From: an uncultured Bacteroidota bacterium
GTDB taxonomy: Bacteria; Bacteroidota; Bacteroidia; Bacteroidales; FEN-979
Direction: 5' to 3'
Assembly: GCA_937862805.1 (NCBI GenBank)
Contig: CALMDO010000235.1
Location: 1 to 55,745 of the forward strand
Length of the DNA: 55,745 nt
Shown here: positions 19,707 through 39,525 of the stretch, in pieces
Position numbering within the stretch: position 1 is the first letter of the stretch
Layout: the number at the start of each line of letters is the position of its first letter
The notes under the pieces: generated by a model
Database searches by the model: none
What the model saw: only the letters and a program-made list of their open reading frames with translations
What the model was told of the DNA's origin: nothing
Translations under genes and position numbers: made by a program

Positions 19707-22700
19707 ATGGCTGATTTTGTTCACTTACACGTTCATACACAATATTCCATTCTGGATGGCGCCTGCCGTATCAAGGAGATGGTCGAAAAAGCTGTTGGAA
19801 TGGAGATGGCCGGAGTGGCCATCACAGATCATGGTAATTTATTCGGCATTAAGGAATTTGCCGAAGCCGCATCCGGGAAGAAGGATTTTAAACCCATTTT
19901 CGGGTGCGAAACTTATATCGCCCGCCGGAGCCTGAAAGACAAAACTGATCCGGTTGACCGAAAAGGCGATCACCTGATTCTCCTTGCAAAAAATGCCAAG
20001 GGTTATCATAATCTTCTCAAACTGATTTCCTTTTCGTGGATTGACGGCCATTATTATAAACCCAGGATCGACAAGGCATTGTTGCGCGAATACCATGAGG
20101 GTTTGATCGCCTCTTCCGCGTGCCTGGCAGGGGAGATCCCGCGGGCCATCCTGAACGGTAATATTCCCAAAGCAGAAGAAGCCCTCCTCGGGTACAAAGA
20201 AATTTTCAAGGATGATTTTTATCTTGAACTGATGCGTCATCCTGCCACTGATCCGACACGTGATACTGAAGTTTACAAACGCCAGCTTGAAGTGGAAAAG
20301 GTAGTGGTGGAGTTGAGCCGGAAATTCAAGATTAAGTTGTTGGCAACCAATGATGTCCATTTTTTAAATGAAGCGGATGCGGAGGCACACGACCGGTTGT
20401 TATGCATCAACACCGGAAAATTTATTGATGACCCGACCCGGATGCGCTATACAGGCCAGGAGTGGTTCAAATCAAAAGAGGAGATGAACGTTCTTTTTGC
20501 CGATCTGCCCGAAGCGCTCGAAAACACCCTTGAGGTGCTGGCAAAAGTTGAACATTACAGTCTCAACCGCGATCCGATAATGCCCGACTTCCCCTTGCCG
20601 GAGGGCTTTACCGATGCCGGTGAATACCTGAGGTACCTGACATACAAGGGCGCTGAAAAGCGGTATCCGGAATTGACCGAGACAATCAAGGAAAGAATCG
20701 AGTTTGAACTGGAGACCATTTGCCGCATGGGTTACCCCGGATACTTTCTGATCGTTCAGGATTTTCTCAATGCTGCCCGGGAAATGGGTGTTTCGGTCGG
20801 CCCCGGCAGGGGTTCGGCTGCCGGCTCGGTGGTGGCTTATTGTATCCGGATCACCGATGTCGATCCCTTACCTTATGATTTACTGTTTGAACGGTTTCTG
20901 AATCCCGATCGCATCTCCATGCCCGACATCGATATTGACTTCGATGAAGATGGAAGGGACAAAGTGCTCCGGTGGGTTGTTAACAAGTACGGACATGACA
21001 AGGTTGCGCAGGTCATCACATTTGGAACCATGGCCGCTAAAGGCGCCATCAGGGATGTTGGCAGGGTTCAGCGGCTGCCGCTCGATGAGGTTTCAAAACT
21101 GACCAAACTGGTACCCGGCCGGAATAGCATTACATTGAAAACCGCCTATGAGGAGGTTCCGGAACTGAAAGCTGCCCGTTTTTCGGACAATTCCCTGGTG
21201 GCTGAAACACTCAAATATGCTGAAAATTTAGAAGGTTCCATCCGTCAAACCGGGCTTCATGCCTGTGGGGTCATCATCAGTCGCGACCCCCTTATCGACC
21301 ACATTCCCATCACAACATCAAAGGAATCAAATCTTTTTGTCACCCAGTTTGATGGTGATTATATTGAAAAGGTGGGCATGCTGAAGATGGATTTCCTGGG
21401 ATTAAAAACCCTCTCCATCATTAAAGATGCACTGAAAAACATCCGGTTGACCCATGGGATCGACCTCGATCTGGAAGCAATCCCTTTCGACGATCAAACC
21501 ACCTACGAACTCTTCAGCACCGCCCGGACAACCGGCATTTTTCAGTTTGAGTCAGATGGAATGAAGAAATATCTGAAAGATCTCAAACCGAATAAAATAG
21601 AGGATCTGATCGCCATGAATGCCCTCTACCGGCCGGGACCCATGGATTATATTCCCAGTTTTATCAACCGGAAACATGGTAAGGAGAAGATCGTCTATGA
21701 TATCCCGGTCATGGAGAAGTATCTTAAAGATACATATGGGATCACAGTCTATCAGGAACAGGTCATGTTGTTGTCGCAGGAATTGGCAGGGTTTACAAAA
21801 GGAGAAGCCGATTCCCTGCGGAAAGGAATGGGAAAGAAGATCGGTTCCATCATCAACGATCTTAAACCCAAGTTCTTTGATGGTTGCAGAAAGAAAGGGC
21901 ACGATGAAGAGATTGTCAACAAAATCTGGAAAGATTGGACGGCCTTTGCCAATTACGCCTTCAATAAATCTCATTCTACTTGTTATGCCTTTCTTGCTTA
22001 CCGGATGGCCTGGCTGAAAGTCCATTATCCGCCCGAATTCATGGCCGCCGTTCTGAGCCGTAACCTGACCGATCTGAAGGAGATCACCCTTTTTCTTGAC
22101 GAATGCAAAAGAATGGGAATCCCGGTTCTTGGCCCCGATATCAATGAAAGCCTGGGGGCCTTCGTTGCCAATAAAAAGGGAGAGATCCGGTTTGGGATGG
22201 CGGGAATTAAAAACGTAGGTGAAAGCGCTGTAGCGAGCATTGTGGAGGAACGGGAAAACAACGGACCATTCCTCTCAATCTCGGATTTGACCCTCAGGCT
22301 CAATTCACACCTTGTGAATAAAAGATGCCTGGAGTCGCTGGCTAAAGCGGGCGCTTTTGATTGTTTTGAAAACACCCACAGAGCACAGTTTTTTTTCCAG
22401 GAAAACAATGACGATACAACCTTCCTTGAAAAAGTGATGCGTTATACTACCGATTACTTCGCCCGGAGGGATTCCATGCAACAATCCCTTTTCGGCGATT
22501 CGGAAGAGATCGGTTTCCGGGAATTACCCATGCCCGATTGCCGCCCCTGGTCATCACTCGAACGGCTTAAATATGAAAAAGAGGTGACCGGTTTTTACAT
22601 GTCGGGTCATCCCCTCGATGAGTACAGGCTTGAAATGGAGACTTTTTCAACGGTTGCTATCAGTGATCTGAAAGAGGACCTTCATACCCTGAAAGGGAAA

Positions 22701-23204
22701 GAATTTACCTTCGCCGGAATGGTCATTGAAGCCAAGCACAAAACCGGTAAAACCGGGAAACTGTTTGGCAGTTTCGTAGTAGAAGATTATTTTGATTTCA
22801 TCAGCCTGACTGTTTTTTCGGAAGATTACCTGAAGTGGTCTCATTTGCTGAAAGAGGGCCGGTTCCTGTTTATCAGAGCCCGGATTGATTCCCGGTTTGA
22901 CAATCCGGACCAATTGATAGTCAGGGTAATAAACATTATGCTCCTTTCGGAAGTGATGGAAAAATCAGCCAAAGTCTTATCGCTTACTATAGAAATCAAT
23001 GATCTGACAAAGGAGACGATCCATCTTCTACAGACCCTGGCGTATAAGCACAAGGGGCGTTGTGCGCTTCGGTTACGGATTCAGGATTATGCCGAGAACC
23101 TTACCATCGATCTTCCTTCAAGAAAATACAGGATCAATGCCGGTGAGATGGTCAGGGCGCTGCAGCAACTTCCTCAGATCGAGTATAAAGTGACCGGAGA
23201 GTAA
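19707..23204 (+). CDS. dnaE: DNA polymerase III alpha subunit
   Basis: PHP HLHVHTQYS, GPGRGSAAGS, MPDIDIDF, YAFNKSH motifs; OB fold. Confidence 0.97.
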   Translation: MADFVHLHVHTQYSILDGACRIKEMVEKAVGMEMAGVAITDHGNLFGIKEFAEAASGKKDFKPIFGCETYIARRSLKDKTDPVDRKGDHLILLAKNAKGYHNLLKLISFSWIDGHYYKPRIDKALLREYHEGLIASSACLAGEIPRAILNGNIPKAEEALLGYKEIFKDDFYLELMRHPATDPTRDTEVYKRQLEVEKVVVELSRKFKIKLLATNDVHFLNEADAEAHDRLLCINTGKFIDDPTRMRYTGQEWFKSKEEMNVLFADLPEALENTLEVLAKVEHYSLNRDPIMPDFPLPEGFTDAGEYLRYLTYKGAEKRYPELTETIKERIEFELETICRMGYPGYFLIVQDFLNAAREMGVSVGPGRGSAAGSVVAYCIRITDVDPLPYDLLFERFLNPDRISMPDIDIDFDEDGRDKVLRWVVNKYGHDKVAQVITFGTMAAKGAIRDVGRVQRLPLDEVSKLTKLVPGRNSITLKTAYEEVPELKAARFSDNSLVAETLKYAENLEGSIRQTGLHACGVIISRDPLIDHIPITTSKESNLFVTQFDGDYIEKVGMLKMDFLGLKTLSIIKDALKNIRLTHGIDLDLEAIPFDDQTTYELFSTARTTGIFQFESDGMKKYLKDLKPNKIEDLIAMNALYRPGPMDYIPSFINRKHGKEKIVYDIPVMEKYLKDTYGITVYQEQVMLLSQELAGFTKGEADSLRKGMGKKIGSIINDLKPKFFDGCRKKGHDEEIVNKIWKDWTAFANYAFNKSHSTCYAFLAYRMAWLKVHYPPEFMAAVLSRNLTDLKEITLFLDECKRMGIPVLGPDINESLGAFVANKKGEIRFGMAGIKNVGESAVASIVEERENNGPFLSISDLTLRLNSHLVNKRCLESLAKAGAFDCFENTHRAQFFFQENNDDTTFLEKVMRYTTDYFARRDSMQQSLFGDSEEIGFRELPMPDCRPWSSLERLKYEKEVTGFYMSGHPLDEYRLEMETFSTVAISDLKEDLHTLKGKEFTFAGMVIEAKHKTGKTGKLFGSFVVEDYFDFISLTVFSEDYLKWSHLLKEGRFLFIRARIDSRFDNPDQLIVRVINIMLLSEVMEKSAKVLSLTIEINDLTKETIHLLQTLAYKHKGRCALRLRIQDYAENLTIDLPSRKYRINAGEMVRALQQLPQIEYKVTGE

Positions 23205-23280
23205 AGAAATTGCCTGAGAAATAGTTTTTTTTGTACTTTAGCAGGTAAATAACTGTCTAACAAATAATAAATCAGAAAAT

Positions 23281-23598
23281 ATGTTTGAAAAATTCACCGA
23301 TCAGAATTTTGAGGAAAAAGTTGTGAAAAGCGATAAACTTGTGATTGTCGATCTTTCTGCAGAATGGTGCGGCCCTTGCCGTATGGTTTCTCCTATTATT
23401 CATGAACTGGAGGCAGAATATGAAGGCCGTATCGTTGCAGGAGAGATGAATGTTGATGACAACCCTGCTACCACAGCCCTTTATAAGGTTCGTAATATAC
23501 CCACCGTGTTGTTCTTCAAGAAAGGCCAGGTGGTCGATAAGCAGGTCGGCGCCGTCCCTAAAGCCTCCTACAAAGCGTTGATTGAAAAATATATCTAA
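23281..23598 (+). CDS. trxA: Thioredoxin
   Basis: WCGPC active site and NIPT cis-Pro loop. Confidence 0.96.
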   Translation: MFEKFTDQNFEEKVVKSDKLVIVDLSAEWCGPCRMVSPIIHELEAEYEGRIVAGEMNVDDNPATTALYKVRNIPTVLFFKKGQVVDKQVGAVPKASYKALIEKYI

Positions 23599-27291: not shown

Positions 27292-27295
27292 TTTG

Positions 27296-29107
27296 ATGAA
27301 TGAACTCAGAAACATAGCGATTATCGCTCACGTTGACCATGGCAAGACCACCCTGGTTGACCGGATTCTTCATCAGGTCCGTCTTTTCAGAGATAATCAG
27401 GAGATGGGTGAACTCATTCTCGATTCCAATGATCTGGAACGGGAACGCGGGATCACGATCCTTTCCAAGAATGTATCCGTGCGATATAAAGGATACAAAA
27501 TCAACATCATTGACACGCCCGGTCATGCCGATTTCGGAGGTGAAGTCGAGCGGGTACTCAACATGGCCGACGGGGTGTTGATTCTCGTGGATGCATTCGA
27601 AGGCCCGATGCCTCAGACCCGTTTCGTTTTACAGAAGGCGTTGGAACTGGGAAAGAAACCCATCGTTGTGATCAACAAGGTTGACAAGCCCAACTGTGCG
27701 CCCGACGAGGTGCAGGAAGCCATGTTTGAATTGATGTTCAGCCTGGATGCCAGCGAAGACCAGCTCAATTTTCCCACGGTTTACGGCTCCTCGAAACAAG
27801 GCTGGATGTCGGATGACTGGCGCAAACCGGCTTCTGATGTCAGTTATCTGTTGGACCAGATCATCGCGCATGTTCCACCGCCGGTGCAGATTCCCGGCAC
27901 CCTCCAGATGCAAATCAGTTCACTTGATTATTCCTCTTATGTAGGTCGGATTGCTGTCGGGAGGATCACAAGGGGATCGATCAAAGCGGGCATGCCCGTA
28001 TCGTTGGTGAAGAATGACCGGAGCGTAACCCGCTCCGTAGTAAAAGAGTTGTATTTATTTGAAGGGTTGGGCAAGGAAAAGGTAAAATGGGAAGTCGGTG
28101 CAGGGGAGATTTGTGCCGTGTTAGGCCCAGAAAATTTCGATATCGGGGATACCATTGCCGACATCGATGCGCCTGAAGGGATGACTCCCATCAGTGTGGA
28201 CGAGCCGACCATGAGCATGTTGTTCACCATCAATACATCTCCTTTCGCAGGAAAAGAAGGAACCTTTGTCACCTCACGGCACATCAGGGAAAGGCTTTTC
28301 AGGGAAACTGAAAAAAACCTCGCTTTGCGTGTTGAAGAGATGGATTCGCCGGAGAAATTCCAGGTTTTTGGAAGGGGAATCCTTCACCTGGCCATTCTGG
28401 TCGAAACCATGCGCCGTGAAGGTTATGAGTTTCAGTTAGGGCAACCCCAAATACTGACCAAGACAATTGACGGTGAAAAATGCGAACCGGTTGAGTTGCT
28501 TAAAGTGCAGGTGCCGGAGCCTTTCGCGGGAAAAGTAATTGAGCTGGTAAGCCGCCGAAAGGGAGACCTGATCCACATGGAACACAAACGCGACCGGGTA
28601 ATCCTCGAATTTGACATCCCGGCCCGTGGATTGATCGGCCTTCGCAACCCTGTTCTGACAGCAACCGAGGGGGAAGCGGTTATGGCCCACCGGTTCAAAT
28701 CATATCAGCCCTGGAAAGGCGATATGCAAGGCAGGATCAATGGAGCACTCATTTCCATGTACACAGGTACTGCCATTACTTATGCCATTGATAAATTGCA
28801 GGATCGGGGCAAATTTTTTATCGATCCTTTTGAAGAGGTCTATAACGGACAGGTCATTGGTGAATGTACCCGCAGCGATGACATCGTTATCAATGTCAAT
28901 AAAACCAAAAAATTATCGAATGTACGGGCAAGCGGTTCTGATGAAAAAGCTGTGATCGTACCCGCGGTGAAATTTTCGCTCGAAGAGGCCATGGAATATA
29001 TCAGAAATGATGAATACGTTGAGGTGACACCTCGTTCCATACGCATCCGAAAGATCATACTTGATGAGATTGAACGGAAAAGAAGCCGTAAGATTGAAAA
29101 TGGCTGA
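27296..29107 (+). CDS. typA: Translational GTPase TypA/BipA
   Basis: [40 protein letters not shown] motifs. ATG at 27296 (track starts at TTG 27293). Confidence 0.96.
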
Positions 29108-29108
29108 A

Positions 29109-30908
29109 TTATTCCCGCGGAATCGCTTCATAGACCAGTTCGGCGATATCCTTAACAGCCATTGAAGCATGGCGACCCAGTGTCTTTTTACAAAGAGGGC
29201 ATGAAGTCGCAATCGTTTCCGGTTGGTTTTCGACCAGGATATCCAGTGCAGCTTTGGTCATCAAATTCCTCTGACTGTTTGAAGCCTCGAACATTCCAAG
29301 GCTTCCACCGCAACAGTGTGCTTTTTCCCGTTCCTCCCTTACGTTTACCAGGTCAGCGACTTTCCCGATGAGTTCACGCGGCGCTTCATAGGTCTTGGTG
29401 CCACGCCCCAGATCGCAAGGATCATGATAGGCAACTTTCGAAAAGTGGCCCTGTAAAGGAATTTTACCCGTTTTAATCAGGTTCAGAAGGAATTGCGAGT
29501 GATGCTGTATCCGGATCGGCAGGTTGTACTCTTCACGAAAAACACGGTAACAGATGGGGCAGGAGGTGACGAGCATACGGGCTTGCGTTTGCCTGATGAG
29601 GGTTTTGTTGAATTCTATCAATTCGTTGGCCTGACGGTCTTTTCCGGCGATCATCAAGGGGCGGCCACAGCATACCGAACCATCGGCATCGAGGTGGATA
29701 AAATCAATGCCTGCACGGGTGAGAATCCCTTTCATGGCCAGGATGATTGTCGGTGTGAGGTGCGTCATACATCCTGAAAAATAGACTACATCACCCTTCC
29801 CTGAATGGCCATTGGTAAGATACCTGAAATCAGATGCCTGACCTGAAGTAATCTCCCTTCTCTTGATCAATCGGAGTGAGTCGGTGGAGATGCCCACAGG
29901 GCAAACTTCCTGGCAGCGGCCGCAAACCAGGCATTTCTGACTGATCTCCTCAGGAACATAACGATCGCGCACTCCGCTGATGAAATAAACTGCCTGCGAA
30001 TCCTGGATTCCGGCTGCGATCATGGGGCAGTCATCCAAACAGACACCACAGCGGGAGCATGACTGGACTTCAGTTTCCGAGAAGCTTGAGTACCATTTTT
30101 TAGGTTGAATACCGCAATGCCGGAAAAAGATCAACAATATTTCCGTCGGGATGTGCATGTAACGTGAATAAGGCAGCATGACGAAAAAAATGCCCAGCAC
30201 AAGACTGTAACACCACCACATGGTGTAAGCTACAAAATCGGAAGGCAAAGGGGTGAGGCTTACCAGAAAATTCCCCAACGGTTGGGTCATAAATCCACCG
30301 CCATTGCCATAATATCCTGCCGTGTAACTTTCTGCCAGCAAACGCATCGGAAAAATCAGCCAAAGGGTGGTGATGGCAACCCTGTCTGTGAAATGGTGGG
30401 AAGTGGTCTTTTTCATTCCAAACCATTTCGATTGTTTTCTTTTTAAAAAAGCCAAAACCAACCCGCTCAGGATGAAGATCAGCAAAAAATCCATGAAAAA
30501 CCGGAAAAGAAACGGTACCGAATAAACCTCGAAAAACAAAACCAGTTTGTCGTGAATGAAGAATTTCAGAAAAATCGGGTAATAGGGGGCATTCAGGTGA
30601 GTTCCACTGTAATAACGACTTTCAATGTTTCCAAGGATGATCAGCAAAAACCAACCCAGGGCAAAACTCATGTGCATGTAGCCAAGCAATGGATTCTGCT
30701 TCCACATCTTTCTGTGTATCAGTGACTCAAGAAAGATTTCGCGGAGGGCAGCTGCGATTTTTCCGGGATGTTTTAACCCATTGGTGAGTTTTACTTTATC
30801 AATGGCCGGTAATGCAGCGATCCAACGGTACCAGCTTTTCCCTACGGCAAGGAAAACATAGATCAGGCCAAGGGTGAAGGGTAAAACGAAAAAGTTAAAA
30901 TTGATCAT
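29109..30908 (-). CDS. Membrane-bound Fe-S oxidoreductase: NarI/HdrE-like TM domain, 2x[4Fe-4S] and two CCG domains (HdrDE/HdrF-like)
   Basis: N-terminal TM helices with His (YMHMSF, YMHIP); CSRCGVCLDDCP and CLVCGRCQEVCP; GC...VCCG...SCPIC and HDPC...HCCG...SCPLC. Confidence 0.85.
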   Translation of the reverse strand: MINFNFFVLPFTLGLIYVFLAVGKSWYRWIAALPAIDKVKLTNGLKHPGKIAAALREIFLESLIHRKMWKQNPLLGYMHMSFALGWFLLIILGNIESRYYSGTHLNAPYYPIFLKFFIHDKLVLFFEVYSVPFLFRFFMDFLLIFILSGLVLAFLKRKQSKWFGMKKTTSHHFTDRVAITTLWLIFPMRLLAESYTAGYYGNGGGFMTQPLGNFLVSLTPLPSDFVAYTMWWCYSLVLGIFFVMLPYSRYMHIPTEILLIFFRHCGIQPKKWYSSFSETEVQSCSRCGVCLDDCPMIAAGIQDSQAVYFISGVRDRYVPEEISQKCLVCGRCQEVCPVGISTDSLRLIKRREITSGQASDFRYLTNGHSGKGDVVYFSGCMTHLTPTIILAMKGILTRAGIDFIHLDADGSVCCGRPLMIAGKDRQANELIEFNKTLIRQTQARMLVTSCPICYRVFREEYNLPIRIQHHSQFLLNLIKTGKIPLQGHFSKVAYHDPCDLGRGTKTYEAPRELIGKVADLVNVREEREKAHCCGGSLGMFEASNSQRNLMTKAALDILVENQPETIATSCPLCKKTLGRHASMAVKDIAELVYEAIPRE

Positions 30909-31237
30909 CCGAAAAGTTCGATAGCCCGGTTAATTCTCAGCAGGACATTGCGGAGGTTCACTCCCCTGGGACAGGTGAGTTGACATTTTCCGCAGAACAT
31001 GCATTTCTTAAGTTCTTGTTTCAGTTTTTCGGTTTCTCCTCTTCGGAGCAGGGTATGGGCCATCCGTATGTTGAACAGCGTAAATTGGCCGGCAGAACAG
31101 GTAGCCGTGCAGCTTCCGCAACCAATACACCAATCCAGGGAAGGTTCGTGGTATAAAACATACCGCATCATCCTTTTATCTTTCGCATCGTAATCAATCG
31201 AATGATCCAGTTGTACGGTAAATCCGAAATCTTTCAT
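30905..31237 (-). CDS. Small HdrC-like 2x[4Fe-4S] protein
   Basis: CIGCGSCTATC and CMFCGKCQLTCPRG motifs. Confidence 0.85.
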   Translation of the reverse strand: MKDFGFTVQLDHSIDYDAKDKRMMRYVLYHEPSLDWCIGCGSCTATCSAGQFTLFNIRMAHTLLRRGETEKLKQELKKCMFCGKCQLTCPRGVNLRNVLLRINRAIELFG

Positions 31238-31238
31238 T

Positions 31239-32264
31239 TTATGGTTTCGTTTTTAACCAGGAATCAATTTGCAAAGCGGCTGCTCTGGCATCTGCGATGG
31301 TATTGGAAATAGTGGCCGGGCCTTTGACTGCCCCGGCCAGGAAGACACCCGGTACAGTCGTCAGGTTATCATTGTAGTGCTCATCAGAAGGGAGGATGAA
31401 TCCGTCTTCTCCTGTGGATAACCCGAGCATTTCAACAAGTTTGCCGGTTTCGGGTTCCGGAACGAACCCGACCAGCAATATCACCAGGTCGACAATCATG
31501 CGCAGGGGACGGCCTGTAAGGGTATCCTCTGTCTTGATGATCAGGGATTGATCAGGAGCTTCGCTGCATTCCGACAGTCTGCCGCGAATGAATTGGACCC
31601 CCCATTGTTTTTGGGCTTCAAAATAGAGTTCCTCAAAATGACGATCGTACATCCGCATGTCCATGTAAAAGGAAAAGACTTCACACTGCGGAAGCTGTTC
31701 TTTTATTTCGATGGCTTGTTTGACGCCCGTCACGCAGCAGACTTTCGAACAATAAAGATTACCGACCTTCTCATCGCGTGAGCCCACGCAATGGATCAAT
31801 GCTACGCGTTGCGGGAGAGTACCTTTACTGGTCAGCAATTTTTTCCCCTGTTTGAAAACTGTTTCCACCTCGGCGGAGGTGATCACATTGTCGTAGATGC
31901 CATAGCCATACTCTTCCTTTCTTTCGGCTTGAAACAACCGGAATCCGCTGGCTATCAACAACGCCTGACCGGTATAGGAGGTTCCTTCTTCTGTTAGCAC
32001 CGTAAAATCTTGATCGTGAGCGATGATACCGTTGATACGGATTCCCGGTTTGATCTCAACCCGGCCGTCCATTATCTTTCGGATGTGGTCTAAAACCTCG
32101 CTTCCTGGTCGGCGGCTTGGAAATAACCGGTCCCATTGCGCCACATGTCCTCCCGGTTGTGCCTCTTTTTCCAGGATCAGAACATGATGGCCTTTTTCTG
32201 CAAGGGCCCCTGCTGCGGTCAACCCCGCGATGCCAGCCCCGATGATTATAACCTGAGGATCCAT
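31239..32264 (-). CDS. hdrA: Short HdrA-like flavoprotein
   Basis: GAGIAG FAD motif; CVGSRD...YCSKVCC cluster; YMDMRMY; GVFLAG. Start ATG 32264 (MDPQVIII), 1 nt after the hdrB stop. Confidence 0.85.
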   Translation of the reverse strand: MDPQVIIIGAGIAGLTAAGALAEKGHHVLILEKEAQPGGHVAQWDRLFPSRRPGSEVLDHIRKIMDGRVEIKPGIRINGIIAHDQDFTVLTEEGTSYTGQALLIASGFRLFQAERKEEYGYGIYDNVITSAEVETVFKQGKKLLTSKGTLPQRVALIHCVGSRDEKVGNLYCSKVCCVTGVKQAIEIKEQLPQCEVFSFYMDMRMYDRHFEELYFEAQKQWGVQFIRGRLSECSEAPDQSLIIKTEDTLTGRPLRMIVDLVILLVGFVPEPETGKLVEMLGLSTGEDGFILPSDEHYNDNLTTVPGVFLAGAVKGPATISNTIADARAAALQIDSWLKTKP

Positions 32265-32265
32265 C

Positions 32266-33336
32266 TTAATAGAATTTGAGAAAAGAAGGCGCTTTGGGGC
32301 GACCCATCGATTGCCCATCACGGTTCAGGAATTTCCTGTTGCTGTCGTAAGGGATTCCCATTTTGTCCAACAAAGGTTCAGCCGGAACCTGGTGAACCTG
32401 CAAACCCAGGTCCCAGGGATCGTATCCTAAAACAAGACCGGCCAGTTCCTCATAGGTTAAAACAGGAATACCCTGGCCATTTTCCCCGTAAGTGGTCCCT
32501 TCCATTTCACTGAGAGTGTACTGCCAGCGATCTAAAAACATCGGGCAACCCGGGCAGTTGGTGAGAATGAGATCAGGTTTATAAGGGGCCATGGAATCAA
32601 ATTTCTTCTTCGAACACGAGAGAGAATAACCCCGGTTAGCCTGGATAAGGTACTGACGGAAACCAAAACCACAACAATGGCGCCTTTCAGGGTAGTCGAT
32701 GACTTCACCTCCCCATTCTTCAATCATTCCGGCCAGGACGTAAGGGTACTCAGCTCCTCCGACCCCTTTCCCCGGGAACATACGGGAGTAGTGACAGCCG
32801 ATGTGCTCAACGCACCGGAGCGGTTGACCGGTTTGCTTGTTGACCAACCGGTATCGGGCCTTTTCCCCTATCTCTTTCCTGAATTTGTAGATCACATCAC
32901 TGGCGTGGGAAAGATTAGACGGTTTGTCGAATTCACGCCCGGTAGCTTTTTTCAGGTTTTCCCTGACACGCGCTTCAACTTCCGGAAAGTGATGCCATGT
33001 CTCAAGAATTTCAGTGTACAACCCGAAAGAGGTGATGCAGGAGGTGGTGAAATTCTGATAACCCGACTCGGTCATCAGGGCAAACTGCCTGGCAACCATT
33101 GTCATAGTGGTTTCAAAGGGAACTACATCGCTGTGATAACCAATCCCTGAACAAGTCGTATGCGCTGCATTTTCAAAGATATCCTTGCCCAACTCCTCTT
33201 TTAAAATCCGGAAAAACATTTTTTCGGAGGCAGGAAAGAAGTTTTGCCTTACACAACTTCTTACATAAAAATAACGGTCATCGGCGATCTCCTTCTGGTA
33301 GTCCTTCCAGATCCTTCTTTTCCCTTCTACTTTCAT
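32266..33336 (-). CDS. hdrB: HdrB-like CCG-domain protein
   Basis: SC...TTCSG...SCITS (degenerate CCG1); GCH...CCGFGFR...NCPGC (CCG2). Confidence 0.85.
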   Translation of the reverse strand: MKVEGKRRIWKDYQKEIADDRYFYVRSCVRQNFFPASEKMFFRILKEELGKDIFENAAHTTCSGIGYHSDVVPFETTMTMVARQFALMTESGYQNFTTSCITSFGLYTEILETWHHFPEVEARVRENLKKATGREFDKPSNLSHASDVIYKFRKEIGEKARYRLVNKQTGQPLRCVEHIGCHYSRMFPGKGVGGAEYPYVLAGMIEEWGGEVIDYPERRHCCGFGFRQYLIQANRGYSLSCSKKKFDSMAPYKPDLILTNCPGCPMFLDRWQYTLSEMEGTTYGENGQGIPVLTYEELAGLVLGYDPWDLGLQVHQVPAEPLLDKMGIPYDSNRKFLNRDGQSMGRPKAPSFLKFY

Positions 33337-34046
33337 AGCTCTCTCCCGTGGTTTTGACTGTTTTCAGTGTATATTTTTTTCATGTAATCGTTGTCAAGCG
33401 TATCGTCCAGGTCAATCCCCATTTCACCGGCTTTTTGTTTCGAGTAATTTTCGATAGCATTAAATCGAGCTGTTCCGCCTGTTACATCAAAGATCTTGCG
33501 AATTTCATCCAGATCTTCCTGCGGTACCTTACGGAGGATTCCCGGTCCGGTTTTTTTATAATTAGCTCCCAATCTTTCCATTACCTCCTCAATGTGCTCA
33601 TGTTCCCATTCCCAGACAGGGCCTTGTTCGGGATGTTTTTCTGGTAAAATTTCCGATGGATAGAGGCAATAGCCGTAATCCAGAATCCATTCGCCTACTG
33701 TCCGTTTGATGGCCAGTTGTTGCCTCCCCTTTTCTGATTCCACGAAATAGCCCAAATCCTGCGAAGCAGCCCTCAGGACCGTGATAAGTAATCCGGGGGC
33801 GTTACCTCTTGGGCAGCGGGTTACGCACGACATACATTCTCCGCAATACCATATGGTTTCGCTCTTCAGGAGCGATTCGATGGCTTGGTCATCATGGGTT
33901 TGGAGAATGTCGACAATCTGTCGGGGTTGGTAAGCATAAAATTCGGCAGCGGGACAAATGGCGGTGCAGGTACCGCAATTTAAACAAGCTTTGAGGCCTT
34001 CGACGAAACGAACATCACCCGCGAGGCGGTCATACAGTTCACCCAT
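33333..34046 (-). CDS. hdrC: HdrC-like 2x[4Fe-4S] protein with C-terminal extension
   Basis: CLNCGTCTAICP and IWYCGECMSCVTRCPRG motifs. Probable start ATG 34046. Confidence 0.85.
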   Translation of the reverse strand: MGELYDRLAGDVRFVEGLKACLNCGTCTAICPAAEFYAYQPRQIVDILQTHDDQAIESLLKSETIWYCGECMSCVTRCPRGNAPGLLITVLRAASQDLGYFVESEKGRQQLAIKRTVGEWILDYGYCLYPSEILPEKHPEQGPVWEWEHEHIEEVMERLGANYKKTGPGILRKVPQEDLDEIRKIFDVTGGTARFNAIENYSKQKAGEMGIDLDDTLDNDYMKKIYTENSQNHGREL

Positions 34047-34107
34047 AAGAATGTTTAGCAACCGGTTTTTCTTCAGGAAAAGATCTTCGCTGAAAAGCCG
34101 GATAATG

Positions 34108-34115
34108 CAAAATTA
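34108..34115 (-). promoter_or_regulatory. -7 promoter box of hdr-like operon
   Basis: TAATTTTG on the minus strand, between the BMP stop and the hdrC start. Confidence 0.65.
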
Positions 34116-34131
34116 AAGAAAATTTACCAAC

Positions 34132-35172
34132 TTATTCAGGCCACCCGGTGGGTATAGAACCGTTCATGATACCGGTCTTTACATTTTCTACCGCCTGCTT
34201 AATGGTATCGGAGAGAAGGAACTCATAATCGTGATAAGGTGCCATCGCAACGCCCTGGTTCGACAGGGTCAATGTCAATGCCTTACCACCGAAAAAGGCA
34301 CCATTGCAGGCATTCAGGACTTCCTGGAAGACAACGATATCCATGCGTTTAATACAGGAGGTGAGCAGGGCAGAGCCTACCAGAGGAATGGTGTTGTACT
34401 GATCCACGTCCACTCCGATAGCCTGAACACCGGCATCCAGCGCCTTGTACAAAGCGCCATTTCCGGTTTTGGCGGCGCAGGCAAAAATAACGGAGGCCCC
34501 TTCATTGATCAGGGTATCCGCATATCTGGCTCCCTGCAAGGTATCGTTAAAACTATCGGCATAGACGCCGGATACATTGACCCGCGTGTGATATCTGGTA
34601 TTAAAATAGTCAACACCTTTGGAAAAACTCACAGTAAACTGACGGATGGCGGGTATCTCCGGACCACCCACAAAAGCAACCCGGGGATTCACAGCATCTT
34701 TCAGGTTAGCCCAGTAAGCTGCCAGAAAACCACAGGGAAAAGAGGCCTGATCGACCTCGTAGTTGACACAGATCATGTTTCGCGGTACCGGCGAAACTGT
34801 CGCATCGAGCAGCAGGAATTTAGTGCCGGGATTGGCCTGTGCCGCTGCAAGGGTATAATCTGTGGCATCCCCACTGAGGGTGATGATCAGGTTGAATTGA
34901 TTTGTGAGAAAATACCGGATGTTGCTGTCGATATCCTCGATGGACGATATTTCCCTGGCTTCGTACACTACAGGAGCCTCGCCCCCTGCAGCGATCAACC
35001 CGTTGAGAGCCTGCTGGTTGAATCCTCCGTCGTCAAATCCCCCCATGCTCGAGATGAGGCCGACTTTTAAAGGGGGTGTGCTTTCCGACTTGGTGCATGA
35101 AGATGCAGACAATCCGATCAGTACAATAACAAAGAGAAAAAGAACCAGTAGATGTTTAAAATTTCTTGTCAT
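34132..35172 (-). CDS. BMP/PnrA family substrate-binding lipoprotein
   Basis: Lipobox SSC; GGFDDGGFNQ, G.LAA, AIGVDVDQ, LTSCIKRMD motifs. Confidence 0.88.
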   Translation of the reverse strand: MTRNFKHLLVLFLFVIVLIGLSASSCTKSESTPPLKVGLISSMGGFDDGGFNQQALNGLIAAGGEAPVVYEAREISSIEDIDSNIRYFLTNQFNLIITLSGDATDYTLAAAQANPGTKFLLLDATVSPVPRNMICVNYEVDQASFPCGFLAAYWANLKDAVNPRVAFVGGPEIPAIRQFTVSFSKGVDYFNTRYHTRVNVSGVYADSFNDTLQGARYADTLINEGASVIFACAAKTGNGALYKALDAGVQAIGVDVDQYNTIPLVGSALLTSCIKRMDIVVFQEVLNACNGAFFGGKALTLTLSNQGVAMAPYHDYEFLLSDTIKQAVENVKTGIMNGSIPTGWPE

Positions 35173-36784: not shown

Positions 36785-37948
36785 TTAGTAAGTATGGCTT
36801 TCTGATTTCATTTCAGCGGCATCGATTTTTTTATTATTGATCGATTTCCAGGCATACCATATATAGGCTACCACAAAAGGCACCATGATTGAAACATAGC
36901 TCATGGCGGTGAGTGTATAATGGCTCGATGAACTGTTGTGAATCGTAAGTGAGCTTTGCAGGTCGTATGTGGAGGGATAATAGGCAGTGTTGTTAAATCC
37001 GGCTAGGAGGAAAAGCGCCAGTACCGTAAAGATGGTTCCAGGCCCGGCCAGCCATATCCCGGTGGATCCTCTTTTTCCTTCACCCAATAAGGGGAGTGCG
37101 ATTCCGGCCAGCACAAGCATCACCCCAATAATGAAAAGGATCAGTACCCCCGGCATAGTGATCAGATTATGAAAATATTTGTAAGGCTCCATGAAAACAG
37201 TTCCGGAGAGAGGATCAACTGCAAAGCCAGGGTATACCATCAGAGCAATAACATACGAGAGAAAGAAGATCAGAAAGGGTATTGTATTGATCAGCAGGTG
37301 TTTTTTGCTTCTTTTCCTGATGTTCTCATCGGCGATGGTATTTAAAAAATAGAGGGTACCTAAAACCCGTGCCAGAAAGAAGACAGCCAGGCCCAGGGCG
37401 ACATTCCGCCAGTTTAATACGGCTTCCAATCCGTTGGCAGGGCCTTCCCAGCGGGAGATGATGGGGTCAGTCAGGTTGATCATGCTTGTCTTGTTGATCG
37501 AGAACTCCGAACCGGTGAAAAAGGTGGAGACGGCTGCCCCGATCAGCACCGTGCCCAGCAAGCCATTGATGATCAAAAACCACTCGTAAGTTTTTTGACC
37601 CAGGAAGTTGTTCGGTTTGCTCCTGAATTCATAAGCTACAGCCTGTATGATAAAAGGAAAGAGAATGGCCATCCATACCCAGTAAGCGCCTCCGAAGCTG
37701 GTGGAATAAAAGAGCGGGAATGAGGCAAAAAAAGCGCCTCCGAAGGTCACCAGGGTCGTGAAAGTGAACTCCCATTTACGTCCCAGCGTGTTGACCAGCA
37801 TCTTTCTTTCTTCTTCATTTTTCCCGATGGTGTAAATCAGGGTTTGCCCTCCCTGCACAAACATCAGAAAAACCAAGACACTTCCCAGCAGAGAGACGAT
37901 GATGTACCAGTAGGATTGCAGCGTTTCAATTGACATGTTTTCAAACAT
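36785..37948 (-). CDS. cydB: Cytochrome bd ubiquinol/menaquinol oxidase subunit II
   Basis: GRKWEFTFTTLVTFGGAFFASFP, SLTIHNSSSS motifs; 1-nt overlap with the cydA stop. Confidence 0.95.
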   Translation of the reverse strand: MFENMSIETLQSYWYIIVSLLGSVLVFLMFVQGGQTLIYTIGKNEEERKMLVNTLGRKWEFTFTTLVTFGGAFFASFPLFYSTSFGGAYWVWMAILFPFIIQAVAYEFRSKPNNFLGQKTYEWFLIINGLLGTVLIGAAVSTFFTGSEFSINKTSMINLTDPIISRWEGPANGLEAVLNWRNVALGLAVFFLARVLGTLYFLNTIADENIRKRSKKHLLINTIPFLIFFLSYVIALMVYPGFAVDPLSGTVFMEPYKYFHNLITMPGVLILFIIGVMLVLAGIALPLLGEGKRGSTGIWLAGPGTIFTVLALFLLAGFNNTAYYPSTYDLQSSLTIHNSSSSHYTLTAMSYVSIMVPFVVAYIWYAWKSINNKKIDAAEMKSESHTY

Positions 37949-39525
37949 TACTTGGTTCCTCCTTCCTTGGGCCCGATGGATATCTGGCGTTTCATGATCA
38001 TGATTTCAGCAATGAGAAGTGCAGTAAAGACCGCGGCAAAAAGGAAGAACGTGATGACGACGGAGGAAGCATCTATTTTAGATATTGCTGCCATAGTCGG
38101 CATCAAGTCCTGGATCACCCATGGCTGCCGTCCCATTTCTGCTACGATCCATCCTGTCTGGCTGGCCAGGTAAACCAGGGGGATGGTCCACACTGAGAGC
38201 CACAACAGCCATCGTTGCTTTTCCAGCACCTTCTTTTTAAGGGCATAAAGCACCGCAATAAAGAGCAGGATGAAAAAGACACCCAATGCCACCATGATGT
38301 GGAAACTGTAAAAGGTGACAGGTACATTGGGGATGGCGCTGGCGGGTTTGTTGAGGTAAGCATACCCGAAATAGGGGAAATTCTCCTTCATTACTTTAAG
38401 TGCAGAATCCGATTTCGCTTTGTCGTCGACCGCTTTGGCCTCTTTGTAAATACCCAATGCTGTGACCGCGGTGCGTCCCTTATTGATTTTTTCTTCGACT
38501 GAAATGGCTATTGCCGATTCCTGCGCCGGGCGAGGGCTGAATTCGGGTTTAAAACCTCCCTGTATAAGATCTTCAACACCAGGCACATAAGCATCAGTGT
38601 TCCGGTATCCCAACACGGACAATAGTTTTGGAATTTCTATCTTTACCAGGAAAGCATCTTTGCCATCTCCTGCTTTCTTTCCGGGGGTCAGAATCCCCAT
38701 GGCTACCAATCCGACACCTTTTTCTCCTTTGTACAAACCCTCCATAGCAGCCAGTTTCATGGGTTGTTTCTGGGCTACCTGGTAAGCCGATCCGTCGCCG
38801 GTAAAGGCCAGGAAAAGAGAGGTGATCAACCCGAAGATGGAAGCTACCAGAATGCTACGTTGGGCCATTAGAAGCTCCCGTTTTTTAAGGAGGAACCATG
38901 CACTGATCCCGATGACGAAAATAGCGCCGGTAACATAACCTGAAGAGACAGTATGGAGAAATTTGTTAACCGCAACGGGTGAAAGCAGCACTTCCCAGAA
39001 ATTCACCATTTCATTTCTGACGGTGTCAGGGTTGAAGTGCATCCCTGCGGGGTACTGCATCCATGCATTGGCTACCAGAATCCACAACGCCGAAAGATTA
39101 GCACCGATGGCTGTCAACCAGGAAGAAGTAAGATGAAAACCCTTACTGACTTTGTTCCAGCCAAAAAACATGACTGCAATGAACGTTGATTCCAGGAAAA
39201 AAGCCATGATCCCTTCGATAGCCAGAGGAGCGCCGAAAATATCACCAACAAACCAGGAGTAATTCGACCAATTTGTTCCGAATTGGAATTCAAGAATGAT
39301 ACCGGTAGCGACACCAATCGCAAAGTTAATCCCGAAGAGGGTCATCCAAAACTTGGTGATCCTTTTCCATTCAGGATCTCCCGTCTTAACGTAGATAGTC
39401 TCCATGATGGCGATAAGGAAAGAGAGTCCAAGGGTCAAAGGAACGAACAACCAATGATAGATGGCCGTCAGCGCAAATTGAGCCCTCGACCAATCAATGG
39501 TACTGAGGTCTACAGATTCAATCAT
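37948..39525 (-). CDS. cydA: Cytochrome bd oxidase subunit I
   Basis: RAQFALTAIYHWLFVP, EFQFGTNW, QPMKLAAMEG, EMGRQPW motifs. Confidence 0.96.
   Translation of the reverse strand: MIESVDLSTIDWSRAQFALTAIYHWLFVPLTLGLSFLIAIMETIYVKTGDPEWKRITKFWMTLFGINFAIGVATGIILEFQFGTNWSNYSWFVGDIFGAPLAIEGIMAFFLESTFIAVMFFGWNKVSKGFHLTSSWLTAIGANLSALWILVANAWMQYPAGMHFNPDTVRNEMVNFWEVLLSPVAVNKFLHTVSSGYVTGAIFVIGISAWFLLKKRELLMAQRSILVASIFGLITSLFLAFTGDGSAYQVAQKQPMKLAAMEGLYKGEKGVGLVAMGILTPGKKAGDGKDAFLVKIEIPKLLSVLGYRNTDAYVPGVEDLIQGGFKPEFSPRPAQESAIAISVEEKINKGRTAVTALGIYKEAKAVDDKAKSDSALKVMKENFPYFGYAYLNKPASAIPNVPVTFYSFHIMVALGVFFILLFIAVLYALKKKVLEKQRWLLWLSVWTIPLVYLASQTGWIVAEMGRQPWVIQDLMPTMAAISKIDASSVVITFFLFAAVFTALLIAEIMIMKRQISIGPKEGGTK

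Follow-up and report, generated by a model that had tools for sequence, protein, structure and literature searches.

A five-gene operon of Bacteroidales and archaea that joins short HdrA and HdrBC-like proteins to a predicted EtfD/HdrF-type membrane subunit

We analyzed a stretch of 55,745 nucleotides (nt) from an uncultured Bacteroidales bacterium (contig CALMDO010000235.1 of assembly GCA_937862805.1; the whole stretch is called the window below), whose minus strand carries five closely packed genes for heterodisulfide reductase (Hdr)-like proteins: an HdrC-like protein (C1), an HdrB-like protein (B1), a short HdrA-like flavoprotein (A), a small ferredoxin (C2), and a membrane-bound fusion protein (F). 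By its gene content this operon is neither a canonical HdrABC nor a member of the sHdr group, and it is common to Bacteroidales and archaea rather than confined to Bacteroidota. We propose, at slightly better than even confidence, that its products form a thiol/sulfane-sulfur (or disulfide):menaquinone oxidoreductase of anaerobes, with direction and substrate inferred. Hdr-like modules are central to anaerobic energy conservation and cytoplasmic sulfur oxidation and, to our knowledge, roles have so far been assigned only to the soluble methanogen and Flx types, membrane HdrDE/DsrMK, Qmo, and lipoate-dependent sHdr. The present operon joins a short-HdrA/HdrBC module directly to what is predicted to be an EtfD/HdrF-type quinone module. 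An initial annotation, made from the sequence of the window, knew of no functional study of such genes, and the literature searched (supplementary tables not covered) likewise held none; the sole mention of the operon that we found is an annotation-level sentence in the available text of PMC11129491.

Layout and distribution of the operon

The genome carrying the operon comprises 2.82 Mb in 329 contigs and is 91.8% complete; the operon contig is referred to as C235. The five genes and the promoter-like box ahead of them are as follows.

33333-34061, minus strand: C1, HdrC-like, 242 amino acids (aa), TTG start, with an in-frame ATG 5 codons on, at 34046
32266-33336, minus strand: B1, HdrB-like, 356 aa
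31239-32264, minus strand: A, short HdrA-like flavoprotein, 341 aa from ATG
30905-31237, minus strand: C2, two-cluster ferredoxin, 110 aa
29109-30908, minus strand: F, fusion of a transmembrane (TM) part, an iron-sulfur (FeS) part and two CCG domains, 599 aa
34108-34115, minus strand: TAnnTTTG promoter-like box, a motif match, 47 nt upstream of the C1 TTG start

The coordinates place 4-nt overlaps at C1/B1 and C2/F and 1-nt gaps at B1/A and A/C2, and together with the Pfam domains they agree with the order C-B-A-C2-(TM+FeS+CCG+CCG), joined by ATGA overlaps or 1-nt gaps, that had been read from the sequence. A longer GTG open reading frame (ORF) of A, extending to 32321 and overlapping B1, is probably unused.

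Homologues of F are abundant: of 8000 candidates scored, at least 4172 reach E ≤ 1e-3. The best 120 share 58-97% identity with F and are named just “(Fe-S)-binding protein” or “Fe-S oxidoreductase.” We collected 22 related loci on genome contigs, from metagenome-assembled genomes (MAGs) of Bacteroidales, Bacteroidota, Prolixibacteraceae and Paludibacteraceae and one labelled “bacterium.” All five genes stand in the same order at 17 of these, some loci being cut by contig ends. One of the 17 (L024) has a 3-kb insertion between B1 and A. Of the remaining loci, L013 starts within B1 and L026 is too short to judge. Two loci (L010 and L017) consist of A-C2-F only and one (L025) of C2-F only; the genomes of all three encode a B-type protein elsewhere, at 61-69% identity. 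In genome G003, where the operon is broken up, there is also a stand-alone short hdrA, and all parts are still in the genome.

To place these loci in a wider frame, we scored F at E ≤ 1e-60 and the B type at E ≤ 1e-40 in 150 further genomes from this order, each family being represented by essentially one genome. F was found in 53 genomes and the B type in 55, and every one of the 53 F-bearers also encodes B. For 46 F-bearers the B gene is on the strand of F and 1354-2527 nt upstream of it, at a median distance of 1430 nt that equals the length of A plus C2; one further F-bearer (G490) has B downstream of F, and six have it on another contig. Two B copies occur in 11 genomes. Because 17 of 22 loci and 46 of 53 F-bearing genomes keep the order, the arrangement is far beyond chance. 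The operon thus occurs in about one in three of the families sampled from this order, whose members are abundant anaerobes that degrade polymers, and the similar genes that the initial annotation mentioned for other Bacteroidales are indeed common. Its bearers are Bacteroidales of anaerobic sludge and sediment. In a sample of 400 other genomes of the phylum, F was found in two.

These counts bear on whether the five genes might encode two independent systems, C1-B1 with a partner of its own and A-C2-F as a quinone-linked module. Such a division would account for the loci reduced to A-C2-F or C2-F, for the stand-alone C-B pairs that the window's genome and 11 of the 53 F-bearers contain, for the two genomes with B and no F, and for genome G002, in which a stand-alone pair lies beside a DsrE2-TusA-MvhD-Qmo-like cluster. 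It fits poorly, however, with the constant company of F and B and their fixed spacing on one strand, with the 1-nt gap between B1 and A, with an order conserved across domains, and with the rarity of B-only genomes (2 of 55), and we consider it very improbable.

The archaeal copies were reached through B1, whose nearest full-length relative outside the Bacteroidales group is a cluster from Candidatus Altiarchaeales MAGs (49% identity by phmmer, 44% by BLASTP). A metagenome scan with the Altiarchaeales B protein retrieved seven loci. Two near-identical contigs (L044 and L045) carry C1-B1-A-C2-F in the order of the window, and two others (L040 and L046) carry B1-A-C2-F from the contig start. Identity between archaeal and window proteins is 46% for C1, 44% for B1, 46-47% for A, 45-48% for C2 and 37-38% for F. 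Among the best 120 matches of the MoaA encoded on the L044 contig, the named relatives are all archaeal, which shows that this is an archaeal contig rather than bacterial DNA binned in error. Conserved across domains, the operon can serve to mark old exchange of genes between Bacteroidota and archaea.

The surroundings of the archaeal genes differ from those in Bacteroidales. Directly after F, L044 (12666-13082, plus strand) and L045 (12398-12814, plus strand) carry a gene for a 138-aa GCV_H-family protein with a Lys at the lipoylation position, and neither gcvT nor gcvP lies in the flank covered. A second archaeal paralogue locus has no GcvH gene; a Nitro_FeMo-Co gene precedes B there and a nitrogenase-component-1-like gene follows F. 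The Nitro_FeMo-Co-family gene (L040, 163-534; L043, 2853-3224) encodes 123 aa and is located between HdrC-like and HdrB-like genes or directly before HdrB, and the gene after F in L046 (4410-5642) is of the nitrogenase-component-1 type (Oxidored_nitro). The Nitro_FeMo-Co-family protein may assist this type of HdrB in maturation or as a cofactor carrier.

The region of the window is also present in sequencing runs. Thirteen DNA runs (sludge, sediment and aquatic metagenomes, and two further runs) hold it at 0.99-1.00 of sampled words, and six runs recorded as RNA hold 0.23-0.80 of them. Contigs from four RNA runs of four studies cover 30, 26, 23 and 22 of 30 bins of the region, some of them bridging gene junctions (32288-33358, 30843-31215 and 32256-32514). 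This cover of metatranscriptome libraries is weakly compatible with expression of the operon in situ.

Subunit architecture and a predicted C2-F contact

C1 contains two [4Fe-4S] motifs in a Fer4_8 domain (residues 23-86, Pfam), followed by a C-terminal extension of ~140 aa, and matches methanogen HdrC in the PDB (5odc_C, E 1.5e-12). Its eight cluster Cys, C132 and H143 are invariant in 16 orthologues. B1 matches methanogen HdrB in the PDB (E 6.5e-33) and has a single Pfam CCG stretch, at residues 178-268. When B1 is aligned to methanogen HdrB, its second CCG domain is complete (C...CCG...CxxC); in the first, CC is changed to TC and CxxC to CxxS, so that three of five Cys are left. Across 15 orthologues C28, H59, C62, H68 and C100 are invariant in the N-terminal domain, as are C181, C221, C222, C261 and C264 in the C-terminal one. 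PDB searches with B1 and C1 returned methanogen chains only, and an ESM Atlas search with B1 returned only Bacteroidota HdrB-like clusters and no structure.

The initial annotation had likened the degenerate first CCG, the CCGFGFR motif and the extension of the C subunit to sHdrB1/C1. The relatives recovered for B1 point elsewhere, the closest ones outside Bacteroidales being archaeal HdrB-like proteins of Altiarchaeales (44-49% identity), Methanomassiliicoccales and Halobacteriota. Nine distant matches are full length at E ≤ 1e-30, and the three of these clusters that bear an organism name are all archaeal; no known sulfur oxidizer appears among the few named distant clusters (20 clusters looked up). 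We built a maximum likelihood tree of 48 B-type rows, all from B1-seeded searches and without sHdr references. The Bacteroidales copies form one clade (support 100/99), sister to one unnamed sequence and next to Altiarchaeales (100/100), and this clade branches within a ladder of proteins of archaeal type in which the first CCG motif is likewise degenerate. Proteins with both CCG motifs complete branch outside this group. In the distant loci L024 and L030, the operon copies cluster with stand-alone ones.

A consists of a Pyr_redox_2/flavin adenine dinucleotide (FAD) fold (Pfam) and one [4Fe-4S] site, formed by C159, C172, C176 and C177, which are invariant in 20 orthologues; ferredoxin and N-terminal domains are absent. 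Residues 5-333 align with residues 4-336 of the sHdrA structure 6tjr_A, that is, over the full length (E 5e-62, 213 bits), which upholds the short HdrA of the initial annotation. Methanogen HdrA chains cover mainly residues ~79/102-332 of A and a short N-terminal FAD stretch, with a best E of 1e-62 and 177-215 bits. Since four of the five methanogen chains score 207-215 bits, A is sHdrA-like in architecture but not clearly closer to sHdrA in sequence. Being short and free of ferredoxin domains, as sHdrA is, A would be suited to relaying electrons from one arm to the other.

HdrA is the bifurcating flavoprotein of methanogenic HdrABC, and a comparable role might be considered for A, with its FAD splitting electron pairs between a high-potential menaquinone arm (C2-F) and a low-potential acceptor at B1, or performing the reverse confurcation. 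The two separate FeS arms that lead from A, with up to three potential redox sites (B1, the CCG pair of F, and the quinone), would suit this arrangement. A lacks, however, the inserted and C-terminal ferredoxin domains as well as the N-terminal domain of methanogen HdrA, and neither the operon nor its immediate flanks encode an input module of the ferredoxin, NAD(P)H or MvhD type, so that we regard bifurcation as improbable.

F is, as judged from its domains and its predicted fold, an HdrF/EtfD-type integral membrane subunit. Its first 270 residues match no Pfam family and are followed by a Fer4_8 domain (280-340) and two CCG stretches, and its AlphaFold2 model (pLDDT 87.1, pTM 0.83) has five long hydrophobic, presumably TM, helices. 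Among 119 homologues, the 8 cubane Cys and the 10 CCG Cys are conserved in at least 97%, as are H65, H79, H119, H252 and several Arg of the membrane part. The best fold match is EtfD of M. smegmatis (9ojn, E 7.7e-21, TMq 0.63), which by sequence matches the CCG part only (E 3e-16) and is the sole solved relative with CCG domains; the other solved sequence matches are three weak ferredoxin-fold ones, to TYKY/NUIM chains of complex I (E 7e-5 to 4e-4). EtfD, in the available text of PMC13083937, has five TM helices, a heme b held by His78/His241 and adjoining menaquinone, two cubanes, a linear [3Fe-4S] cluster at a CCG motif whose second Cys is changed to Thr, and a further noncubane cluster completed by a His; its two CCG clusters, two cubanes and heme b are described there as a wire to menaquinone. 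H79 and H252 of F stand at positions similar to those of the EtfD heme ligands, a likeness by position only. F has CC where EtfD has CT and does not have the EtfD His ligand, and it thereby retains the full ligand set (5+5 Cys) of the catalytic HdrB/HdrD type.

C2 is a bare two-[4Fe-4S] ferredoxin (Fer4_7 at residues 37-93, Pfam) with 8 Cys invariant in 19 orthologues. We modeled it together with residues 265-599 of F, each supplied as an alignment, in three runs. The pair scored 0.88 (runs 0.88, 0.17 and 0.89) against 0.01 for the best control; 58 of 80 solved complexes attain the mark used for this score, as do 2 of 110 mismatched pairs (approximate counts; own alignments used). The partners have a pLDDT of at least 73, and the runs share at least 10% of contacts. 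In the model, residues 380-384, 409-418, 535-544 and 572-576 of F, which are the loops with the CCG cysteines, face residues 77-84 and 92-97 of C2, around its second cluster motif. C2 is therefore predicted by this model to sit on the CCG loops of F.

The ligand set of F also invites a reductive reading, in which its HdrD-like CCG pair would be a catalytic disulfide (polysulfide/trisulfide) reductase, respiratory or repair-type, fed by menaquinol and/or by HdrA-C1-B1. The near-complete retention of the ten CCG Cys, the CC in place of CT and the absence of the His that renders the EtfD cluster non-catalytic all speak for a catalytic site, as does a weak NCBIfam similarity to DsrK, TfrB and GlpC, but these NCBIfam scores are far under their cut-offs (64 bits against 400 for DsrK). 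Moreover, C2 as modeled would lie over both CCG loops, at the substrate entry, and menaquinol is, by established redox potentials, a poor reductant of common low-potential disulfides. We therefore rate a reductase of this kind as improbable.

Known Hdr-like systems and a proposed electron route

A, B1 and C1 are homologous to HdrA, HdrB and HdrC of methanogens, but the operon departs from canonical HdrABC in each of them. A, at 341 aa, is without three domains of the ~650-aa HdrA; B1 is two Cys short at the first noncubane site and so does not have two complete CCG motifs (5+5 Cys); and no Mvh, Fdh or Flx partner is encoded in the cluster. NCBIfam scores stay below their cut-offs, with 250 bits against 1100 for the HdrA2 model, 130 against 450 for HdrB, and 82.7 against 350 for HdrC. 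Nesting within canonical HdrABC clades, which the initial annotation had named as grounds for giving up a distinct class, was not found for B1: in the 48-row tree it is not among the HdrB-like rows with both CCG motifs complete, and the genome has a separate canonical-type set on contig C215. QmoABC and DsrMK/HdrDE share the concept of coupling an HdrA-like flavoprotein or an HdrD-like CCG protein to menaquinone through a membrane subunit with heme b; unlike the present operon, QmoC has no CCG domains, Qmo no HdrB and DsrMK no HdrA. The QmoC model scores 49 bits against C1 (cut-off 300), and the DsrK model reaches no more with F than the score given above.

The sHdr systems come closer. Type I is encoded by shdrC1B1AHC2B2 and type II by shdrC1B1AHB3-etfAB-emo, and sHdr is always accompanied by LbpA and sulfur transferases, according to the available text of PMC11094781; in that of PMC6067878 the sHdr genes are “inevitably associated” with lbpA. 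A matches the short HdrA of these systems (~340 aa, FAD, one [4Fe-4S]), and in type I (shdrC1B1AHC2B2-lbpA of Hyphomicrobium denitrificans, Acidithiobacillus and Aquifex) a short HdrA likewise carries two FeS arms, C1-B1 and C2-x. C1, B1, A and C2 of the type I set are present here, whereas HdrH, LbpA and the soluble B2 are absent, with the membrane subunit F in the place of B2. The layout thus mirrors the C1-B1-A-...-C2-x of sHdr with an HdrDE/HdrF-type module instead, as the initial annotation had proposed in calling this a distinct Hdr class. Type II clusters, of Sulfobacillus and others, have the same C1-B1-A start, a short HdrA and a membrane protein with TM helices and two CCG domains (6-TM + 2xCCG in the Sulfobacillus cluster, as described in the part of PMC4378227 available) that is proposed to feed menaquinone. 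Their HdrH, B3, etfAB, lbpA, dsrE, tusA and lipoate ligase genes are not in the cluster of the window, and the genome's etfBA is on contig C185. Unlike in type II, a free 110-aa ferredoxin and not ETF is predicted at the membrane subunit, the N-terminal CCG of B1 is degenerate, and the bearers are anaerobic Bacteroidales and an archaeon. The cluster has no gene for LbpA or for sulfur transferases, the archaeal GcvH-like gene after F being the exception to the lacking lipoate association.

The operon might still act as a functional sHdr that converts protein-bound sulfane sulfur to sulfite, with a GcvH-like lipoate carrier encoded elsewhere and F in place of the type II EtfAB-EMO. The shared gene order, the short HdrA, the TM + 2xCCG protein of type II clusters and the archaeal GCV_H-family gene are what one would expect of such a system, and the window's genome does contain a DsrE2-TusA cluster as well as an extra GcvH-domain fusion on contig C279. 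The search of this genome for sHdr companions, which the initial annotation had suggested, gave TusA and GCV_H matches, but they, like the ETF matches, are all on contigs other than the operon's, and the only TusA is on contig C87, within a Qmo-like cluster. The companions do not follow the operon in the order sample either. TusA is encoded by 23 of the 53 F-bearers and by 38 of the 97 genomes lacking F, hence with no enrichment (rhodanese not searched). GCV_H is nearly universal (138 of 150 genomes), and four of the 53 F-bearers, which are 94-99% complete, have no match to it at E ≤ 1e-10; among the matches listed, only that of G474 lies within 10 kb of the operon. No GcvH-like match was found in the window or in the 22 loci with flanks of up to 8 kb (lipoate ligase genes not searched). 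TusA and GCV_H were therefore dropped as predictors of the operon, given their lack of enrichment with F. Set against the tight lbpA and sulfur transferase association of sHdr, the missing HdrH, B2/B3 and etfAB (the genome's etfBA standing beside its own split EMO-like pair), the archaeal paralogue locus with no GcvH gene, and the anaerobic sludge and sediment habitats of the bearers, this leaves a functional sHdr unlikely in our judgment.

The third family of relatives concerns F. HdrF is defined in the available text of PMC2702500 as a protein of TM, HdrC and HdrB domains that clusters with electron-providing modules, e.g., glpAB and etfAB. HdrF, EMO, EtfD and DgcB have the domain order of F (a TM bundle, two cubane [4Fe-4S] motifs and two CCG domains in one polypeptide) and adjoin a flavoprotein module. 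No ETF, GlpAB or DgcA-type donor is encoded beside F; its neighbors are C2 and the short HdrA, so that its partner would be HdrA-C2 (with C1-B1) rather than EtfAB, GlpAB or DgcA.

From these likenesses we propose the following arrangement for the oxidoreductase. The five proteins would form one membrane-anchored Hdr-like complex, in which B1-C1 bound to the short HdrA, probably a dimer as in sHdrA, would make up a soluble arm that C2 bridges to F. Electrons would run from the substrate site of B1 through C1, the [4Fe-4S] cluster and FAD of HdrA, and C2 to the two CCG clusters of F, its two cubanes, heme b and finally menaquinone. B1 would act on the substrate at its one intact noncubane cluster, and candidates for the cytoplasmic thiol/disulfide-type couple are protein thiols, low-molecular-weight thiols, and persulfides or further forms of sulfane sulfur. 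By analogy with EtfD, EMO and HdrF, which pass electrons from a neighboring flavoprotein to quinone, the complex would more probably oxidize its substrate and reduce menaquinone than work in reverse. A single complex is in keeping with the translational coupling of the genes and with an order kept across deep divergence, including archaeal contigs at 37-48% identity.

Several points weigh against this proposal. Heme b, the quinone site and the cluster types of F and of the complex are assigned from motifs and models. F could itself be catalytic rather than a relay, since it keeps all ten CCG Cys, unlike EtfD, and the two halves could be separable, since L010 and L017 are without C1-B1 and stand-alone C-B pairs exist. 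One of the three C2-F model runs reached only 0.17, and the score may partly mirror known folds, because HdrB-HdrC complexes are solved. No substrate-related gene is conserved beside the operon in Bacteroidales, where the flanks are housekeeping. Finally, some RNA contigs run past the end of the convergent typA or into the gap upstream, and bins are uncovered in runs X15-X17, so that these libraries are silent on a single transcript, on transcript ends and on DNA carry-over.

Thiol/sulfane-sulfur oxidation to quinone would give fermentative Bacteroidales an unrecognized link between the sulfur cycle and respiration, e.g., in sulfide tolerance, and would offer a simple LbpA-free system for studying how noncubane clusters handle sulfur substrates. 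A bolder version, which we put forward tentatively and think doubtful as a whole, is that the operon encodes a third, ancient class of Hdr-like complex, a quinone-coupled membrane “HdrCBA-C2-F” kept intact in Bacteroidales and Altiarchaeales. In fermentative anaerobes it would pass persulfide/thiol electrons via menaquinone to fumarate reductase or cytochrome bd, by a sulfur-based route for respiration or detoxification that is independent of SQR, Sox, Dsr and lipoate-dependent sHdr, and the half-degenerate site of B1 would hold a new cluster type, possibly matured by the Nitro_FeMo-Co-family proteins whose genes recur next to B-type ones.

Flanking genes and further Hdr-related sets

A 70-nt gap separates C1 from the upstream gene for a Bmp-family lipoprotein (34132-35172) and contains the TAnnTTTG box, which we take to be the Bacteroidetes -7 consensus. 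The promoter of its own that the initial annotation had given the operon keeps this box in its support but gains nothing from its frequency, with 31 occurrences in the whole window against 34 expected; as a motif match with no enrichment, it makes a promoter at this site plausible. A sigma-70 scan, which does not cover Bacteroidetes promoters, gave 1 promoter-like site against 6.9 expected, and a terminator scan gave 5 terminator-like sites against 6.3 expected. At the other end of the operon, a convergent plus-strand ORF of 604 aa (27293-29107), which its translation suggests to be typA/bipA, stops 1 nt from the F stop (29107-29109), and the terminator scan found no terminator-like hairpin between the two.

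Among the genes annotated between 20079 and 43736 there is no mvhD, flx, etf, lbpA/gcvH, tusA or dsrE, which confirms the absence of mvh, flx, etf, lbpA, tusA and dsrE noted earlier. The flanks conserved among relatives (rsmE, DUF4159, valS, DUF58, dnaE-thioredoxin, and proteins sorted by the type IX secretion system) are housekeeping or unrelated. The genes cydA (525 aa) and cydB (387 aa) for cytochrome bd lie at 36785-39525 on the minus strand, 2.7 kb upstream of the operon and on the same strand, with the rsmE, DUF4159 and Bmp genes in between. Cytochrome bd neighbors recur in some related loci (clusters 13 and 22), and cytochrome bd and the operon would both touch the menaquinone pool. On the plus strand, dnaE (at least 1041 aa, cut in the ORF list) is followed by a gene for a 105-aa thioredoxin (20079-23598), a pair that recurs in 10 of the 22 related loci as a conserved housekeeping flank.

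The window's genome encodes four further Hdr-related sets. A stand-alone HdrC-HdrB pair on contig C311 (L005, 3045-6015, minus strand) is 60-62% identical to C1-B1 of the window and has two Nitro_FeMo-Co-family genes, a thioesterase gene and a gene for a NUBPL-type ATPase as neighbors. The corresponding pair of genome G002 (L036, 1848-12326) directly follows its DsrE2-TusA-MvhD-Qmo-like cluster and a gene for an ArsP_2-type permease, and is itself followed by genes for a pyridoxal phosphate enzyme of Cys/Met metabolism and a peroxiredoxin. A link between stand-alone pairs and TusA was considered and set aside as too loose: the two are adjacent in G002 and 10-17 kb apart in G456, G457 and G489, and other pairs are not near TusA.

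The TusA-bearing set on contig C87 (L007, 4254-11472, plus strand) encodes DsrE_2, TusA, MvhD, a 930-aa HdrA/GltD-like (HdrL-like) protein, a 665-aa HdrA-like protein and a 374-aa QmoC-like protein with Fer4 and NarI-like parts, and is preceded by a divergent gene for a Crp-family regulator; these genes would specify a Qmo-like complex joined to sulfur carriers. The canonical-type soluble set on contig C215 (L006, 4061-10035, minus strand), at a contig end, comprises a 249-aa CCG protein, a long HdrA (657 aa), MvhD, two FeS proteins and an NAD-binding flavoprotein (Flx-like). On contig C185 (L008, 7265-11146, minus strand), etfB and etfA are followed by genes for a 440-aa protein with NarI-like TM and Fer4 parts and a 292-aa 2xCCG protein, which by their domains appear to form a split EMO/EtfD-like ETF:quinone module distinct from F.

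The GcvH-domain fusion on contig C279 (20451-22596, minus strand) is a 310-aa protein whose C-terminal GcvH domain has an ESSKA-type lipoyl-lysine motif and whose N-terminal part resembles two small Cys-rich proteins encoded just downstream. The gene that follows these is probably one for an ArsR-type regulator. A similar ORF of 285 aa lies 12 kb from a TusA gene in G457.

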